Assembly (NCBI GenBank): GCA_963699445.1
Contig: CAVOTX010000010.1
Location: 258,453-322,452 of the forward strand
Length of the DNA: 64,000 nucleotides
Direction: 5' to 3'
Source: an uncultured Planctomycetia bacterium
GTDB taxonomy: Bacteria > Planctomycetota > Planctomycetia > Pirellulales > PALSA-1355
Shown here: positions 4,307 through 57,993 of the stretch, piece by piece
Layout of the letters: each line of letters begins with the position of its first letter
How positions within the stretch are numbered: the first letter of the stretch is position 1
Translations under genes and position numbers: made by a program
The notes under the pieces: generated by a model
Database searches by the model: none
Seen by the model: the letters and a program-made list of their open reading frames with translations, nothing else
What the model was told of the DNA's origin: nothing

Positions 4307-4490
4307 GACTGGGGATTCCTGAAACAGTTTGGCTCGATGTGCCCCGCTTTCGACGGACGAGACGAGGGCGGGCCGCAGCAAGATTCCTCTTGGATATAGT
4401 ATAGAGCACAAGGCCGAAAAATGCGCAGCGGTTGCGTGAGCGGGAAAATGCTGCGCCCGGCAGGCCCCCGGTTATCAAGGGCTGGCGCCG

Positions 4491-4996
4491 TCAGCCGGAT
4501 CGATCCGCCACTTCGACAAAACTGAGGTTCTTCAATTCCTCGCCGCTGGCGAGCCTTTGCCGGCTGCAAACGTCGATCACGCTCATCAGCGCATCGTACC
4601 GCAAGCCGGAGCCGACTTGGATCACGACTTGCCGAAAGGGCATGCCGGGATCTGCCAGCAGCCTGGACAGGCGTCGCTCCAATCGCGGCAAGCTGTCGAC
4701 GGGCCGGCCGCCAACGTGCATCGTGCCGATGGCCCCGTCGTCGCCGGAGAGCACCTCAATGACGAGCGTCGTCAGGTTGGCGAGCGGATCGACGGAATCC
4801 GGCTTTGTTCCCACGGTCGTGCCACTGTTTGGCGTCGCAGAGTGCGGAGGCGGCATTCGCAAGTCGATCCGGCCTTCGAGCGGGGCGGGACGGAAGGTGA
4901 GGATGAAAAACGTGAGCAACTGAAACGCCATGTCGAGCATGGCGGCCAGGTTCAGCTCGACACTTTCCAGCGACTTGCGCCGCGCGGCCTGCCCAT
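4491..4996 (-). CDS. ExbD/TolR-family biopolymer transport protein (copy 1)
   Basis: ...KSLESVELNLAAMLDMAFQLLTFFILTF... closely parallels the paralog at 5157..5675. The ATG at 4996 is one nt out of frame with the conserved body, so either a 5'-proximal indel or a non-ATG start. Confidence 0.8.
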
Positions 4997-24315: not shown

Positions 24316-25557
24316 ATGCGCTGCGATTGGCTAATGCTGGCTCTGCTATTGAGTGGCTCGACGACCCGATTCGCCTCGGCCGACCAGGCACAGGATATCG
24401 CCGCTCTGCGCAAGGCGGGAGGAATCGTCACGCTGGACGATGCCGACCGCGTGGTGGCGGTCAATCTTCGCGACGCCCAGTTGACCGACCTGGACGTGAA
24501 GCGGCTCGAAGGCTTTACGAACCTGAACAAGCTGGAATTCTTGGGCTCCGACATCAACGACAAGTCGCTGGACAGCGTGGCCAAGCTCACGAATCTCAAG
24601 GACCTGGTCCTCGAAAATACCGAAATCACCAACGACGGACTGGCCAAACTCAAGCCGCTGCAGAATTTGCGGCTGCTCAATCTGCGCCGCTGCACGTATC
24701 TGTCGGACGACGGGCTCGTGCAACTCCAAGCGCTGGGCAACCTCGAACAGCTGCTGTTGCTTTACAACAACTTCTCGAACGCCGGCATGGTCCATCTGAC
24801 GACTCTCGCAAAGCTGCGCATGCTCGACCTGCGCGGCTGCGTGCTGATCTCCGACGACGGACTGCTGGAAATCAAGAAGCTGCCCAACCTCGAGCGGCTC
24901 AAGTTGCGCAATTCACAGGTCAGCGACGACGGCCTGAAGCAGATTGCGGAAATGAAAAAGCTCAAGGGGTTGATCCTCGAAGATGCCGCGATCAGCGACC
25001 GCGGGCTGGTCCACCTGAAATCGATGACCAAGCTCGACGAACTCAACCTGATGCGCAACAATATCACCGACGCGGGGCTGGAAAATCTGGCCGGCCTCGA
25101 ACTGCTCAAACGCGTCGAGCTGCGCGGAGCCCGGCTCAACGGCTCGGGCCTGGCAAGTCTCAAAAACCTCAGCAAGCTCACCTTGCTCGATATCGCCGAA
25201 ACGCCCGTCGATGACGCCGGTTTGGCGAATCTCAAAAACCTCACCAGCCTGGAACGCCTCGATTTATGGGGCACGCAAATCACCGACCAAGGGCTCGAGA
25301 ACCTCCGCGGCCTGACCAACCTGAATTGGCTCAGCCTGCAAAACACTCGGATTACCGACGCCGGGCTGGAAAATCTCGAACCGCTCGCCAAACTGGACGA
25401 TCTCGATCTGCACACGACGAAAATCAGCGACGCCGGCCTGGCCCACCTCGCCGGGCTCGCCAAACTGGCCAAGCTCGACCTCAGCTTCACCAAGGTGACC
25501 GCCGCCGGCCAGCGGGAGTTTCAGCAGTCGCACCCGAATGTGAAGATCACCCGTTAG
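24316..25557 (+). CDS. secreted leucine-rich-repeat (RNI-like LRR) protein
   Basis: Intact 413-aa ORF, ATG at 24316, signal MRCDWLMLALLLSGSTTRFASA, then about 14 repeats of ~24 aa (L..L..L..L.L..T.ITDAGL..L). Confidence 0.85.
   Translation: MRCDWLMLALLLSGSTTRFASADQAQDIAALRKAGGIVTLDDADRVVAVNLRDAQLTDLDVKRLEGFTNLNKLEFLGSDINDKSLDSVAKLTNLKDLVLENTEITNDGLAKLKPLQNLRLLNLRRCTYLSDDGLVQLQALGNLEQLLLLYNNFSNAGMVHLTTLAKLRMLDLRGCVLISDDGLLEIKKLPNLERLKLRNSQVSDDGLKQIAEMKKLKGLILEDAAISDRGLVHLKSMTKLDELNLMRNNITDAGLENLAGLELLKRVELRGARLNGSGLASLKNLSKLTLLDIAETPVDDAGLANLKNLTSLERLDLWGTQITDQGLENLRGLTNLNWLSLQNTRITDAGLENLEPLAKLDDLDLHTTKISDAGLAHLAGLAKLAKLDLSFTKVTAAGQREFQQSHPNVKITR
24466..25516 (+). repeat. ~72-nt periodic LRR coding repeats (about 14 units)
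   Basis: Protein-level periodicity, e.g. LKNLTSLERLDLWGTQITDQGLEN / LRGLTNLNWLSLQNTRITDAGLEN / LEPLAKLDDLDLHTTKISDAGLAH. Confidence 0.7.
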
Positions 25558-42641: not shown

Positions 42642-42751
42642 GGTTGGTGAACCTTGAGGTTAAGTGCGTCGAAATCGAGCCGGCCGGCGCCGCCACCGGC
42701 ACATCACCGCGGGGAGAGCAAACCATCGTTGCCGAGCGCGGCGTCGTCGGC

Positions 42752-42814
42752 CACGGCGACATTCGTCACGGCGTCATTCGTCACGGCGTCATTCGTCACG
42801 GCGTCATTCGTCAC
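42752..42814. repeat. 15-bp tandem repeat (cacggcgtcattcgt) x4.2
   Basis: Units at 42752, 42767, 42782 and 42797, plus a partial one. The first unit has one mismatch. The repeat overlaps the stop codon (42804-42806) of the zinc-ribbon/GYF gene. Confidence 0.9.
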
Positions 42815-52519: not shown

Positions 52520-52537
52520 CGCGATTCGGGCGTCAAC
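52515..52537. terminator. short hairpin between convergent motB and zwf
   Basis: gttgacgc-gattcgg-gcgtcaac (8-bp stem). It overlaps the zwf stop codon (52533-52535). No clear U-tract. Confidence 0.25.
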
Positions 52538-53944
52538 ACGTTTCCGGCTGCGACGTAGTTTGCGAGCCGTTCATGTGCGGATTTCGCCAGCCGCCCGGCG
52601 GCAGCACGTTGGCACCGCACTCGCTTGGTCCCCAGGTGTGCGGATCGTACATGTACAACGGCGTGGCATTGCCCAGCACGGGCTCGACGATCTGCCAGGC
52701 CGCCTCGACCGAGTCCTCGCGGGCGAATAGCGTGGCGTCGCCTTTCATCGCGTCGCCCAGCAGCCGCTCGTAATCGCTCATTTCGTCGGCCTCGGTCTGA
52801 TGGCTGACCATCAACTCGACGGGCGTGCCCATGACTTGCTCGCCGGGATCCTTGATCATCGTGCCGATGGCGATCGAGACGTCGGGGCTGAGCCGAAAGC
52901 GGAAGTAGTTGGGCGGAGGCGGGGCGTGCCGTACATGGCCGGCGGCCTGCGCAGGCGCACCATCACCTCGGTACACGTGACCGGCATGTTCTTGCCGGCG
53001 CGAATGAAGACCGGCACGCCCTTCCAGCGCCAGGAATCGATCTGCAGCCGCACGGCCACGAAGGTTTCGACGTGCGAATCGTGCGGCCACGCCCGGTTCC
53101 TTGCGATAGCCGCGGAACTGCCCGCGCACGACGCTCTCGCCGTCGAGCGGCCGAATAGTGCGCAGCACCTTGACTTTTTCGTCGCGGACGGCTTCGGCGT
53201 CGGTCCCGGCTGGCGGCTCCATGCAGAGAATCGCCAGCACTTGCAGCAAATGGTTCTGGACCACGTCGCGGATGGCGCCGGCCTCTTCGTAAAAAGCGCC
53301 GCGGCCTTCAACGCCAAAGCTTTCGGCCATCGTGATCTGGATGTTGTCGACGTAGTTGCGATTCCAGATCGGCTCCAGAAACGAATTGGTGAAGCGGAAG
53401 AAGAGCAGGTTCTGCACCGGCTCTTTGCCCAGGAAATGATCGATGCGAAAGATCGACGGTTCGGCGAAATCGGCAGAGCAGCGTCTGGTTCAACGCGACA
53501 GCCGATGCCAGGTCGCGGCCGAACGGCTTTTCGATCACCACGCGCGCCGCTGAGGCGCAGCCCGACTTGCCCAAGTGTTCGACCACCACCGGAAACATCA
53601 TCGGCGGAATGGCCAGATAGTGCAGCGGATGCATCGGCCGGGCCCAGCTCTTTGCGCAGCTGCGCGAACGTCGCGGCTTCGCGGTAGTCGCCGTCGATGT
53701 AGTGCAACAGGTCGCAGAGCTTGGCAAATGCCGTCCGGATCGACGCCGCCGTGCTTTTCCAGGCTGTCGCGCGGCGCGGGCTTTCAGGTCGTCGAGCGTC
53801 CAGCCGGCCTTGGCCACGCCGATGACCGGCATGTCCAGATGGCCCCGTTTGACCATGCCTTGCAGCGCCGGAAAGATCTTCTTGTGGGCCAGGTCGCCGG
53901 TGGCGCCGAAGAAGACCAGTGCATCGGACGTGACGTTTCTTCAT
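52533..53944 (-). pseudogene. zwf: glucose-6-phosphate dehydrogenase; five or more frame breaks
   Basis: ATG at 53944 (MKKRHV..), [20 protein letters not shown] by frame-hopping, the diagnostic [26 protein letters not shown] at about 53400-53470, [40 protein letters not shown] (ORF 52533..53417), and the C-terminal ...[10 protein letters not shown]. Confidence 0.85.
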
Positions 53945-53963
53945 CGTGCCTCGCTCTTGCGTT

Positions 53964-54993
53964 TCATGTTCGAACTTCGCCGCTGGTTTTTCCACGTGGC
54001 CGCCGAACTCGAACCGCATGGCCGACAGCAGCTTGTCGGCAAAGTCGGCCTCGCCGCGCGAGGCGAATCGCTCGTACAGCGCAGTCGTCAGCACGGGCGC
54101 CGGCACCGCCTCGTCGATCGCCGCTTTGATCGTCCAGCGTCCTTCGCCCGAATCGGACACGCGGCCGGCGAAGTTCGCCAGCGCCGGATCCTTGAGCAAG
54201 GCCTGCGGCCGTCAGATCCAGCAGCCAGGACGCAATGACGCTGCCGCGCCGCCAGACTTCGGCCACGTCGCGCAGGTTGAATTCGTACTGGTAATCCTCG
54301 GGATGCCGCAACGGCGTGGTTTCGGCGTCGGACGCGTGCGTTTGTTTGCCGACGTTGGCATGCTGCAGAATCGCCATTCCCTCGGCATAGGCCGCCATGA
54401 TGCCGTACTCGATGCCGTTATGCACCATCTTGACGAAGTGCCCGGCGCCGTTGGGTCCGCAATGCAAGTAACCGTGTTCGGCGGTGCCGCGATGCTTGTC
54501 GCGGCCGGGCGTCCGCGGGGCCGAGTCGATCGGCGGAGCCAGCGTGGCGAAGATCGGATCCAGATGTTTGACGATCGCTTCCGATCCGCCGATCATCTGG
54601 CAATATCCGCGCTCCAGTCCCCACACGCCGCCGCTGGTGCCGACGTCGACATACTCGATGCCTTGCCGTTTGAGTTCGGCCGCCCGGCGGATGTCGTCGA
54701 TGTAGTAGGAGTTTCCGCCGTCGATCAGGATGTCGCCCTTGGCGAGCAGCGGAGTCAGCTCGGCCAGCGTCTGGTCGACGACGGCCGCGGGGACCATCAG
54801 CCACACGGCGCGGGGCTGGGAGAGCTTTTGGATCAGGTCGGCCAATGAAGCCGCCCCGACAGCGCCTTCTTTGGCCAGCCCTGCGACGGCGCTCGGCATG
54901 GATGTCGTAGGCGACGCACTGATGTCCGGCTTGCATCAATCGGCGGACCATGTTGGCGCCCATCCGACCCAAGCCCAGCATACCGAGTTGCAC
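53964..54993 (-). pseudogene. gnd: 6-phosphogluconate dehydrogenase, short (~330 aa) decarboxylating type; two or more frame breaks; 3' end uncertain
   Basis: AGGAG 7 nt upstream of the GTG at 54993: [30 protein letters not shown]. Body in ORF 53964..54899 ([13 protein letters not shown]...[19 protein letters not shown]...[16 protein letters not shown]). Tail in ORF 52856..54199 ([24 protein letters not shown]...[12 protein letters not shown]). Confidence 0.8.
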
Positions 54994-55151
54994 GGGAACG
55001 CTCCTATTATGTGGACTTCTTGGCAAACGCAGAACCCCAAGGCCGCCGCAGCTATGATGACGCACGCCCGGCCGGTTGCCAATCCGAAATGCCGGCTCGT
55101 TAGAGCGTCACATAAAGACCTTTGCGCCCTAGAACGACGTGCCGCAATAGG

Positions 55152-56039
55152 TTAATGGCAACAGCCTCCGCGCGAGGCGGTGGCAGCGGAGCAGCATTGA
55201 CGGCCGGAACCTCCTTGGACAATTTGGTCGCCGGCTTCGGTGGTCGCATTGCCGCCTGCCGCGCGGCTGCTGCGACGCAGCAGTATAAAACACACGACGG
55301 CCGCGGCCAAACGCACGCCGCGGATGGTTTGATCGCCCGCGCCCGCGGCGCAGACCCGCCTCGGCACCCTGCTCGGCGGCAATTGCGGCGACTCCCACGG
55401 CCAATGCCTTAGCAACCGCCCAGCGGCCGCCTTTCTTGCCCACGGCGACCAAGATCCCGCCGCCGGCGAACAATCCCGCGACCGATCCGGCCGTCTCGAC
55501 AGCTTCCATGCGGGTTATGAGGCGGTCCATCGACGCGTTGTGCTCGTGCAGCCGCTGGTTGATCTGATAGCGCAGCCGATTCGATCGCTTGGCCTGCTCG
55601 GGGTCGGAGAACAAGGGCAGCCCGAGTGCCGCAGTCCTGGGCAACGCGGCCAAACGGTTGTAGGCGACGTCGGGCATGTCCGCGGCCAACCATGCCTCGC
55701 CCGCGCTTTCCAGCGCGTCGTTGTACAGAAAGATTTGCTCCTCGATCTGGTTGACTTCATCGTCGATGTCGGCCTCTTGTCCCACTTCGATGGCGTCGAG
55801 CTTCTCGCCCAGCACCTCCAACAGCCGCTTGATCTCGGCAAAATGTCCTTTGGCCTTGGCCAGTTTTTCATGAAAGAATGCCTCGGCACTCAAATTCAAA
55901 GCCGAGCGTTTCGGTTCGGAAAAAGGACCCGCCTGCCGTTCGACCGGCGGACCGCTCACGTTCGGGATCACGCTCTGCACGAACGCGCCCAGTTTGAGCC
56001 AGGCTCGCCTACGCTTCCTCGTCGCCGTCGGGTTCATAA
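55152..56039 (-). CDS. orphan toxin-like C-terminal cassette (helical region + glycine-zipper hydrophobic segment); frame and 3' end uncertain
   Basis: ORF 55129..56094: (MNPTATRKRRRAWLKL)GAFVQSVIPNVSGPPVERQAGPF...HFAEIKRLLEVLGEKLDAIEVGQEADIDDEVNQIEEQIFLYNDALE...AGSVAGLFAGGGILVAVGKKGGRWAVAKALAVGVAAIAAEQGAEAG. Downstream of about 55390 the plausible reading moves to ORF 55152..55415. It shares the junction motif with 57526..57993. Confidence 0.4.
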
Positions 56040-56420
56040 GTAAGGTCGGCAAAATCGTCGACGTATCGCTCCTTCGAGTACATCGCGCGCACAACCGCCA
56101 CTGCCCATGTACCAGCCGGCCAGCTCGCCACGCCCCTCGGCTGACAGATCAACAACCTTTCCATTTGAGGCAGTGAATGAAAGATGCAGCAGTTCTTGGT
56201 CTATTGCCAGAAGCAGGTAAAAGACAGCATCGTCCACGATGTCGGGTGCTGCTACGCTCACAACTGCCGCACCCGTACCCTCGCATGCCGCCTGCCTCCA
56301 ACGCCTCGCGACGGGTCCGTTCACATCGGCCCGTAGTTCCATATCGCTGCTTCGGATAGCAGCGTCTCTGACTTGTTCGACAAGTATCCGGGCGAATTCG
56401 TCTATTTCGAAAGTCGGCAT
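56009..56420 (-). CDS. small acidic cytoplasmic protein, candidate immunity protein; one frame break
   Basis: The ATG at 56420 lies 1 nt after the inferred upstream stop (56422-56424). MPTFEIDEFARILVEQVRDAAIRSSDMELRADVNGPV...VFYLLLAIDQELLHLSFTASNGKVVDLSAEGRGELAGWYMGS (ORF 56034..56429). After a break near 56100 it reads ...AMYSKERYVDDFADLTYEPDGDEEA, stop at 56009. Confidence 0.45.
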
Positions 56421-56421
56421 A

Positions 56422-57539
56422 TCATCCACCCCATGGAATTCTTGTTGGTTCCGATACTCCGGCGTCTTTTACGCGCCTTGATGGCTCGCCGCACCGTTGC
56501 GCGGGCTGCGTCGGCATCCATATTGCATATTGCCACGGATCAGCGCGTCGGTCTCGATCTTTTCCACTGCTTTCCACGTCAGTTTGCGCCGGTTCTTGCG
56601 AAGGCCCGATATAGTATTTGTTCGGCGCCTGTGACGATGGCGTGCCTCACGCCAAGTCTCGCCAATTCCGCGTTTGAAACAGCCGGTGCAGCATTAGCAT
56701 CGTAGCCGGCGGCGCCAGAGAACGCACTTTTCGCTGGCACATGATGCCCGCCGCCTTGGCCTCCGTACGGGGCTAAATCGGCAGCTTTCGCGGTATCTTG
56801 CTTCGTGGCGCCTTTGGACACGCTCGGCGCGATCTTCGTGACTTTGATCTTAGCACCGCCCAGACCGTTTGCCGACAATGTGGCCGGGTCGAAGTCCAAG
56901 CTGATGCGGTAGCCGGTGGAAGTCTCGATGACCGCGTGCGCCGTGCCCGCGGCGTCGACAGCCGCTTTTCCCAAGGCGATCAGCAGACCGCCGTTATCGG
57001 CGAGAAACCGCGCCGTTTCTGCGTCGACGCCGGCGGCTTCCAGCACGGCTTGAATGCCGCGCGCGACCAGGCGCGGTGCTCTTCGCCCGTGGCCAGATCG
57101 GCGCCTGCCAGCGCCGTTTGTTCTGCGCCGCCGGCAACTTCCAGCGTGCCCAGCATCGGGGCACCTTCGACGATTCCGTTGATGCCACCGATGATGGCAA
57201 ACATGCCGCCTTGAAAGCGGCTGCTCGCCCCGCGCACGCGCATCACGTCGGCGTGCCGAATCTTTTCCCGTGCGGCCAGCGCGGCGGCTCCTTGCTCGGG
57301 AGCTTGACCGCGGTTGAGTTCAACGAATTCCCAGTGCGGCGTGTCGAATGCCGGCTGGACCAGGCGGAAATGGGCCGTGTCGACGCCGCCGTTTTTGCGC
57401 CGAGGCGAACGAACGCTTCGACGCCCAGTGCGTTGCTGCCGTGGCCCAAGTGCGCATCCGGTCGGCCCGTCGACAAGCGCGCCAGCCGCCCGCACGCGGT
57501 GCATCGCGTCAAGGCTGACGTTTTTCTACTTGGTGCCAA
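56422..57539 (-). pseudogene. variable toxin-like module with GGGHHVPAKS motif; three or more frame breaks; possibly continuous with 57526..57993
   Basis: Pieces: ...RLARLSTGRPDAHLGHGSNALGVEAFVRLGAK (ORF 57243..57539), GGVDTAHFRLVQPAFDTPHWEFVELNRGQ...GGMFAIIGGINGIVEGAPMLGTLEVAGG (ORF 56980..57504), LEAAGVDAETARFLADNGGLLIALGKAAVD...APYGGQGGGHHVPAKSAFSGAAGYDANAAPAVSNAELARLGVRHAIVTGAEQILYRAF (ORF 56579..57046). The tail between 56422 and 56579 is readable only by further hopping. Confidence 0.4.
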
Positions 57540-57993
57540 GAATGCGGATTATTTGTTGCGTCTCGACCGTGTAGTCACCCGGGTTGATGCGGATGGTGCT
57601 GGACGGTCGCGATCCCGTGGGAGGCTTCGCTTCGCCCGGCCCGCTGGCGTTCGGGATCACGCTCTGCACGAACGCGCCGTCGGCGGCGATCTGCGAATGC
57701 ACGCGCCGCGCGGCGGGCTGGACTGCGGATCGGCTGGCACTCAGAGCCCGCGATTCGATGATCCGGGCGATCGTGTCGATCGAGTGCGGCTTGATCCCGA
57801 TGCCGCGCTCGGGCGTCTCTTCAACAAAGCGATCGAGCTGCTCCGGCCAGTCGTCGGGAATCGGTCCGGCCAGAATGCCATTGAGCCACTGGTCGAGCGA
57901 ATCGCGGAATGCTTTCAGACGTTGCCTGATGACGTCGTCGATCTTTTCGAGAACCGCCCGGACGACCGGTTCCCACGGGCTCTTGCCGTCCAT
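57526..57993 (-). CDS. constant N-terminal module ending in the GAFVQSVIPNASGP junction motif
   Basis: GGAGGA 4 nt upstream of the ATG at 57993. Intact 155-aa ORF: MDGKSPWEPVVRAVLEKIDDVIRQRLKAFRDSLDQWLNGILAG...HSQIAADGAFVQSVIPNASGPGEAKPPTGSRPSSTIRINPGDYTVETQQIIRILGTK. No signal peptide. Confidence 0.6.
   Translation of the reverse strand: MDGKSPWEPVVRAVLEKIDDVIRQRLKAFRDSLDQWLNGILAGPIPDDWPEQLDRFVEETPERGIGIKPHSIDTIARIIESRALSASRSAVQPAARRVHSQIAADGAFVQSVIPNASGPGEAKPPTGSRPSSTIRINPGDYTVETQQIIRILGTK

Follow-up and report, generated by a model that had tools for sequence, protein, structure and literature searches.

The described toxin domains closest to the element considered here carry an xHH signature. 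Tox-SHH (PF15652) has an HNH/EndoVII fold and the signature '[SG]HH, H', and its hosts include delta-proteobacteria and planctomycetes (PMC3482391); examples are V2c of Agrobacterium, Tke4 of Pseudomonas putida and Txe4 of P. plecoglossicida. In V2c, H383 is assigned as a metal ligand, H384 as the catalytic base and H408 as a metal ligand, and its SHH motif is reported to account for nuclease activity (PMC10902643). Tox-GHH2 (PF15635, e.g. Tse7 of Pseudomonas aeruginosa) has an HNH fold with the motif 's[AGP]HH' and is an Rhs-linked toxin tip (PMC3482391). The His-Me finger has been defined by two features: strand 1 has the catalytic His at its C-terminal end, in many cases with a D, E or H metal ligand before it, and the first turn of the helix supplies an Asn or a His as metal ligand (PMC5714182). 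The subject of this report is a pair of adjoining minus-strand genes in a stretch of 64,000 nucleotides (nt) from contig CAVOTX010000010.1 of an uncultured Planctomycetia bacterium, referred to below as the window, which an initial annotation had put forward as an HNH-like nuclease toxin with its immunity protein. That the two are a toxin-immunity pair is a solid call. The fuller reading, in which the region is the variable C-terminal end of a polymorphic toxin followed by its cognate immunity gene and the tip acts as a His-Me finger nuclease, is favoured with moderate confidence. The two features that carry the argument are as follows.

56422 to 56785, minus strand: C-terminal toxin tip, about 118 amino acids (aa) plus a TGA stop, with three frame breaks inside.
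56009 to 56420, minus strand: immunity gene, of 136 aa once a frame break near 56090 is corrected, with its ATG 1 nt past the toxin stop.

Read along the minus strand from 56785 to 56422, the tip can be summarised as …PYGGQGGGHHVPAK…SNAELARLGVRH…TRIPWGG, and once corrected for frame its sequence is AADLAPYGGQGGGHHVPAKSAFSGAAGYDANAAPAVSNAELARLGVRHAIVTGAEQILYRAFARTGANLTWKAVEKIETDALIRGNMDADAARATVRRAIKA[L/R]KDAGVSEPTRIPWGG. The peptide quoted in the initial annotation, APYGGQGGGHHVPAKSAFSGAAGYDANAAPAVSNAELARLGVRHAIVTGAEQ, is indeed encoded there, from 56773 to 56618. The domain is basic, with a computed pI of 9.5. A sequence search with the reconstructed domain of about 118 aa found homologs in 26 proteins (best E 5e-46), and the range of E-values for homologs of the reconstructed domain, 1e-46 to 1e-35, puts the signal far beyond chance. 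When a profile of the tip was compared with 1.84 billion cluster representatives (50% identity), 679 clusters were recovered at E≤1e-3, of which 540 also passed E≤1e-10. Among the best 150 of these 679 the match reached the last residues of the protein without exception, in host proteins of anything from 90 to 3619 aa. The long carriers are Rhs/YD-shell proteins with SpvB, FG-GAP and TcdB-midN regions, and the shorter ones have PT-HINT or PT-TG pre-toxin domains, so that the Pfam partners found N-terminal to the tip comprise RHS_repeat, TEN_YD-shell, SpvB, TcdB_toxin_midN, PT-HINT and PT-TG. A domain that is always C-terminal and is borne by many carriers bears the signature of a polymorphic-toxin tip, and the present one is an extreme C-terminal domain on many unrelated carriers in the sense of Zhang and Aravind. 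The family is absent from Pfam and NCBIfam; scans of the tip, the pre-toxin region, the immunity protein and two neighbouring elements described below (orfN and module 2) against both collections gave nothing above cut-off.

The second line of evidence is the gene that follows. The acidic open reading frame (ORF) starts with the ATG at 56420-56418 (MPTFEIDEF...) and ends ...YEPDGDEEA before a stop at 56011-56009, as had been proposed. Its position 1 nt after the toxin stop also holds when the toxin is read through the frame breaks: the junction runs ...CCA TGG GGT GGA TGA t ATG CCG..., with the stop at 56424-56422, the single spacer base at 56421 and the ATG directly after it. The description of the product as net acidic was likewise accurate, there being 26 D+E against 12 K+R and a pI of 4.24, and the charges of the two proteins are complementary, the toxin domain having a pI of 9.5 and the immunity protein one of 4.2. 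For the acidic ORF 219 homologs were found, about 125-130 aa long and 55-71% identical, with E-values down to 7e-56, and this immunity family of more than 200 members is absent from Pfam and NCBIfam: a relevant Pfam match was found in none of the 53 members scanned, and NCBIfam gave none. A model of the protein (pLDDT 84.9) predicts three long helices and a hairpin; Foldseek of this model against the Protein Data Bank (PDB) gave no match (best E 1.9), and no profile or fold match was obtained to the known immunity families SUKH, Imm11/24/30/55 or Im9-like.

The linkage between the two families was examined with one genome per species, giving 18 loci with the toxin motif, 16 of them full-length. 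Rather than lying in unrelated conserved neighbourhoods, homologs of the acidic ORF adjoin the toxin at 14 of the 16 full-length loci, 5-35 nt downstream on the same strand, and at four of them there are two tandem copies. The tip domain also ends an Rhs protein of 2237 aa in Sorangium cellulosum (CP003969), and the immunity homolog begins 1 nt after the stop of that protein, so that the same tip, the same immunity family and the same 1-nt gap recur there; counting this locus, the acidic family lies downstream at 15 of 17. It is a conserved downstream neighbour of the tip in Myxococcota, Planctomycetota, Verrucomicrobiota and Acidobacteriota. The two are likewise adjacent at a metagenomic locus (L024), and one gene call (P0052) fuses the C-terminal residues of the toxin to the immunity protein. 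The immunity gene accordingly lies directly downstream of the tip and co-varies with it. The exceptions are two Polyangiaceae/Sorangium loci, L010 (about 4360-4730) and L018 (about 4480-4850), in which the tip is followed by DUF6547 (PF20184, E 1e-36). This suggests that DUF6547 is an alternative, second candidate immunity family for the same tip; no mention of it was found in the literature searched, and the curated libraries searched do not record its link to the toxin.

Homologs of the immunity gene also occur apart from any toxin, in runs of small unannotated ORFs: at L002 (6001-6393 and 8216-8587) they adjoin a DDE transposase, and at L003 and L004 (6001-6384) they are near AbiTii and DUF4238 genes. 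Such toxin-less homologs are usual for orphan immunity genes, and these runs are probably orphan-immunity or defence islands.

The third line of evidence comes from the protein upstream of the tip, which belongs to the following feature.

56786 to 57399, minus strand: pre-toxin region, from RKNGGVDTAHF to GLGGAKIKVTKIAP, with breaks near 57400 and 57064.

The initial annotation had begun its module at 57539, but this is merely a TTG in an unsupported frame, and homology with sister proteins begins at about 57399, with RKNGGVDTAHF. Its term 'variable module' proved literally correct, for the sister proteins swap tips past a common pre-toxin. Some 200 aa upstream of the tip are common to them at 76-97% identity, up to …GLGGAKIKVTKIA, and beyond this point three different tips are found in the alignments of the sister proteins. 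In P0018, P0020 and P0021 the alternative is a WHH plus colicin-DNase tip, and in P0016 and P0019 a 'DRHHSIP…' tip that has an HH dyad and no Pfam match. P0016, the ortholog from a closely related assembly, is 97-98% identical upstream and then diverges. The switch between alleles falls directly after KIKVTKIA (about 56825), and what remains as far as 56786 is a short linker leading to the tip. The allele with WHH (PF14414) and Colicin-DNase (PF12639) illustrates the principle best: its pre-toxin matches that of the window as far as ...AKIK(V/A)T(K/R)(I/L)A at 76-82% identity (P0020, L023), and it has the same layout of tip plus immunity gene, the latter of the SUKH/SMI1_KNR4 type at locus L023, whereas its tip domain and immunity family are both entirely different from those in the window. 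A metagenome scan with the pre-toxin alignment found nothing. It is the combination of a C-terminal tip on many carriers, a conserved acidic neighbour in several phyla and swapped sister tips, some of them of HNH type, that makes the toxin-immunity call solid and bears out the original proposal of a pair.

What kind of enzyme the tip might be depends on the following features within it.

56741 to 56746, minus strand: HH dyad, H14 and H15 of the domain, in a nearly invariant G-H-H at the predicted end of beta-strand 1.
56672 to 56674, minus strand: Asn38 (S-N-AEL), modelled in the first turn of the helix that follows strand 2.
56642 to 56644, minus strand: His48 (GVRH), invariant among all members examined.
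56621 to 56623, minus strand: Glu55 of the window copy, at a family position that is an invariant Gln (TGAQxxLY).
56519 to 56532, minus strand: 7-nt tandem duplication CAATATG-CAATATG, which causes one of the frame breaks in the tip and is not of the homopolymer type.

Across 83 diverse members, and in the numbering of the window copy, G13, H14, H48 and Q55 are invariant, and H15 is kept in at least 90%. The Gln that all 83 have (TGAQxxLY) is a Glu in the window copy (TGAEQILY), which is either a base-call error or an inactivating substitution. A reading of 'RLGVSH' as the Rx4-6H motif of a HEPN domain was rejected, as the Arg is not conserved and is T or Q in some members.

An AlphaFold2 model was built for a family member 70% identical to the window copy and was of high confidence (pLDDT 93.5, pTM 0.88). 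The predicted order is a strand (E12-14) ending in G-H-H, a loop of 18 residues containing a short helix, a second strand (E33-36) and a helix (H37-43) of which the Asn is the first residue, followed by three longer helices. The HH dyad would therefore close strand 1, as the catalytic His does in His-Me fingers, and the predicted layout fits the published definition. The Asn singled out in the initial annotation would, in the model, occupy the metal-ligand position in the first turn of the helix and not the place of the classical mid-loop Asn; it is present in about 90% of close members.

Profile searches point in the same direction. Domain-only scans of the 83 members were run against 24,736 Pfam models, and the family matched by the largest number of members was Tox-SHH (8 of 83, best E 1.7e-4), the next-best E-value, 4.3e-4 in a single member, belonging to Tox-GHH2, another xHH HNH toxin family. 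Tox-SHH was also the first match of the family consensus (E 0.011, 16.9 bits), over profile positions 22-93 of 96, and the register was identical for the consensus, the window copy (14.1-14.3 bits) and P0288 (14.8 bits). When 20 members were scanned singly against Tox-SHH, P0288 and the family consensus alone matched. The motif of Tox-SHH, '[SG]HH' with one conserved downstream His, has its counterpart in G-H-H and His48.

The comparison with described systems can be taken further. Tox-SHH and the window family have in common '[SG]HH ... H', a position at the C-terminal tip of Rhs, HINT or other carriers, and an immunity gene immediately downstream. They differ in the spacing from HH to His, which is 33 residues in the window family and 24 in V2c (PMC10902643), suggesting a loop about nine residues longer, with a short helix in it, and this longer loop may explain why the local alignments to Tox-SHH start only past it. 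Of the immunity families recorded with Tox-SHH (SUKH, Imm11, Imm24, Imm30, Imm55), none is matched by the immunity protein of the window. Tox-GHH2 shares the xHH motif and the Rhs-linked tip, but has HxxxH in its helix where the window family has a single invariant His. The colicin E9/E7 DNases with Im9/Im7 offer a more distant parallel in the basic HNH domain at the C-terminus of a modular toxin, the small acidic cytoplasmic immunity protein encoded just downstream and the HH dyad that ends strand 1; on the other hand there is no detectable sequence or profile similarity and no Foldseek match, the motif spacing is different, and the immunity model, with its three long helices and hairpin, is not an Im9-like four-helix bundle. 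Unlike the Rhs toxin of S. cellulosum, the window copy is without an Rhs shell, PAAR, HINT or other recognised delivery domain and follows orfN and an unannotated pre-toxin. On these grounds assignment of the tip to the His-Me fingers is likely, and the tip is probably a long-loop relative of the Tox-SHH HNH nucleases. The HNH/EndoVII proposal thus retains its G-H-H and His, its layout and its sub-threshold matches to Tox-SHH and Tox-GHH2, and it lacks a hit above any curated cut-off or a Foldseek match.

If this is correct, the tip would be delivered into a neighbouring cell, where it would be a metal-dependent nuclease of the His-Me finger (HNH/EndoVII) group with Tox-SHH as its nearest likeness. 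The role of general base would fall to H15, which ends strand 1, and the divalent metal would be bound by H14, by Asn38 in the first turn of the helix and by the invariant His48. In the cytoplasm of the producer the immunity protein would bind the toxin and block it, and the TGA-t-ATG overlap would couple translation of the two genes.

The remainder of the locus bears on how such a toxin would be carried, and comprises the following features.

57526 to 57993, minus strand: orfN, 155 aa, with a GAFVQSVIPN junction and a 38-aa tail, ending in a TAG stop (57526-57528).
57637 to 57678, minus strand: junction repeat copy 1, encoding GAFVQSVIPNASGP, at the constant/variable boundary.
55948 to 55989, minus strand: junction repeat copy 2, GAFVQSVIPNVSGP, directly after the immunity stop and heading module 2.
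55103 to 55947, minus strand: module 2, a further pre-toxin, frameshifted, in which a hydrophobic segment is rich in Gly and Ala.

orfN and the ORF upstream of it (59185 to 58088; acidic and Pro-rich) are syntenic with another contig (L025, 4557-5858), and the synteny ends directly after GAFVQSVIPN. As the similarity stops there, this peptide marks the constant/variable boundary of the locus, and orfN and the upstream ORF look like its constant part; neither of the two has a Pfam or NCBIfam match. The two 42-nt junction copies are 93% identical. The TAG that ends orfN is in frame with the module ATG at 57504, and the toxin module resumes 21 nt later; the same TAG is found in the ortholog P0294 of a related assembly. 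The arrangement may represent a single toxin of about 500 aa interrupted by a nonsense change, or two genes, or a displaced cassette. Homologs of module 2 form the N-terminal part of P0200 and P0237, both of which end in the same HH tip, and in the window no toxin tip follows it before gnd.

A number of results weigh against the nuclease reading and have to be set beside alternatives. The gathering cut-off of Tox-SHH, 22.7 bits, was reached by no member, the window copy, P0288 and the family consensus scoring 14-17 bits, and surely spurious families (Linocin_M18, DUF7388) were also matched by several members at E 0.01-0.1. Divergent subclades have D, E, Q, T or K in place of Asn38. Foldseek of the confident tip model against the PDB and BFVD gave no match (best E about 1), and PDB sequence searches with profiles from 17 and from 83 sequences gave chance matches only, so that the profile and structure searches for a toxin fold that the initial annotation had recommended yielded sub-threshold Tox-SHH matches and no significant match to an established His-Me member. 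The hhalign comparisons of the family with the WHH tips, the 'DRHHSIP' tips and colicin E9/E7 gave no signal either, although the templates were too shallow for this to weigh as evidence against. Alignments of Tox-SHH were not found in the supplements of PMC3482391 and PMC5714182. To these are added the state of the window copy itself, with its six frame breaks and Glu at the invariant Gln, and the finding of no secretion or trafficking domain by Pfam or NCBIfam in orfN or the pre-toxin. It may therefore be asked whether the pair is a true toxin and immunity protein in which HH, His and Gln form some other active site, for example of an RNase or other hydrolase, in a mostly helical and undescribed fold. 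Such a reading would account for the want of a structural match and of a curated Pfam or NCBIfam model, for the helices outside the minimal His-Me finger that make up three quarters of the domain, for the varying Asn and for the invariant Gln of TGAQ, which has no role assigned in HNH enzymes. It is nevertheless rather unlikely: the two best Pfam E-values across the 83 members both fell on HNH toxin families with an xHH signature, the Tox-SHH match keeps a single register and spans nearly the whole profile, HH lies at the predicted end of strand 1, the same carrier bears at least one other tip of a known HNH type (WHH/colicin-DNase) and the DRHHSIP tip has an HH dyad, and Foldseek is weak for a core motif of about 30 residues. 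Less likely again is a more far-reaching version in which the tip is a widespread non-His-Me fold with its own active site (HH, His and Gln), served by two dedicated immunity families (the acidic one and DUF6547) absent from the toxin-immunity literature, and in which the Planctomycetota carrier is an undescribed constant orfN/GAFVQSVIPN module and not of the Rhs, PAAR or CdiA type.

The frame breaks raise a different question. Indels of 1 nt seem to be frequent throughout the window, which is what an uncorrected long-read assembly would be expected to show. By tblastn with homologs, five breaks were placed in the module, near 57400, 57064, 56580, 56530 and 56472, and there is a sixth near 56090, inside the acidic ORF, at which GGTTGTGCGC seems, when compared with P0027, to contain a T too many; the earlier count of at least three was an underestimate. 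A programmed -1 frameshift at the CAAAAAC run near 57400 was rejected, since the equivalent junction of the related locus L023 contains no slippery sequence. If the breaks, the 7-nt duplication, the TAG and the change of Gln to Glu at position 55 were all real, the locus would be a decayed or displaced orphan in which production of the toxin has ceased and the immunity gene, at most, is still of use. Five breaks in a module of about 1.0 kb and one more in the immunity gene would be in keeping with this, as would the TAG shared with a related assembly, the adjacent module 2 without any tip and the existence of orphan immunity genes of the acidic family in islands of small ORFs, and both the duplication, atypical of homopolymer error, and Glu at the invariant site mean that real damage is possible. 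Against this, the housekeeping genes zwf (52533-54199) and gnd (53964-55065), also on the minus strand, are each spread over two or three frames with their Pfam domains cut mid-profile, and the positions of breaks differ among close assemblies, the site at 57064 being uninterrupted in the near-identical relative P0016 and P0292 being frameshifted within orfN, where the window copy is intact. Related contigs bear nanopore-style names and one has a split polA, four of the breaks are single-base indels in short runs or CG repeats, and within its frames the window tip is 60-72% identical to intact homologs along its full length. With zwf and gnd broken in the same way and relatives breaking elsewhere, most of the frame breaks are probably assembly indels and not decay of the cassette, and the orphan reading is an improbable one. 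A chance pattern in GC-rich DNA, with ORFs that are not genes, was worth considering only as long as the motif had been matched by eye, since spurious long ORFs are common at 64% GC; with hundreds of homologs of both proteins at E<1e-30 and a gene order kept across phyla, it has already been refuted and its probability is negligible. The polymorphic-toxin reading with a His-Me finger tip accordingly remains the one preferred.

Some other repetitive sequences were seen in the window. Between 19014 and 22621 a very long minus-strand ORF contains long tandem repeats (three of about 828-855 nt and three to four of about 339 nt, at 65-79% identity) and probably encodes a surface protein of repetitive make-up. 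At 24625-25471, repeats with a period of 72 nt encode units of the ...ITDAGLENL... type, which resemble leucine-rich repeats, and a 15-nt tandem repeat (CGGCGTCATTCGTCA) is present in about five copies at 42739-42813.

The architecture and logic of the locus are those of ordinary polymorphic toxin biology, and current understanding is not overturned. What the locus does expose is a gap in annotation: a toxin domain of at least 679 clusters and an immunity family of more than 200 members are now labelled 'hypothetical' in Myxococcota, Planctomycetota, Verrucomicrobiota and Acidobacteriota, and defining both families, together with the link to DUF6547, would improve the annotation of loci for interbacterial competition. 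If the nuclease assignment is true, a long-loop branch would be added to the Tox-SHH group, and the constant orfN/GAFVQSVIPN module hints at an uncharacterised route of delivery in Planctomycetota.

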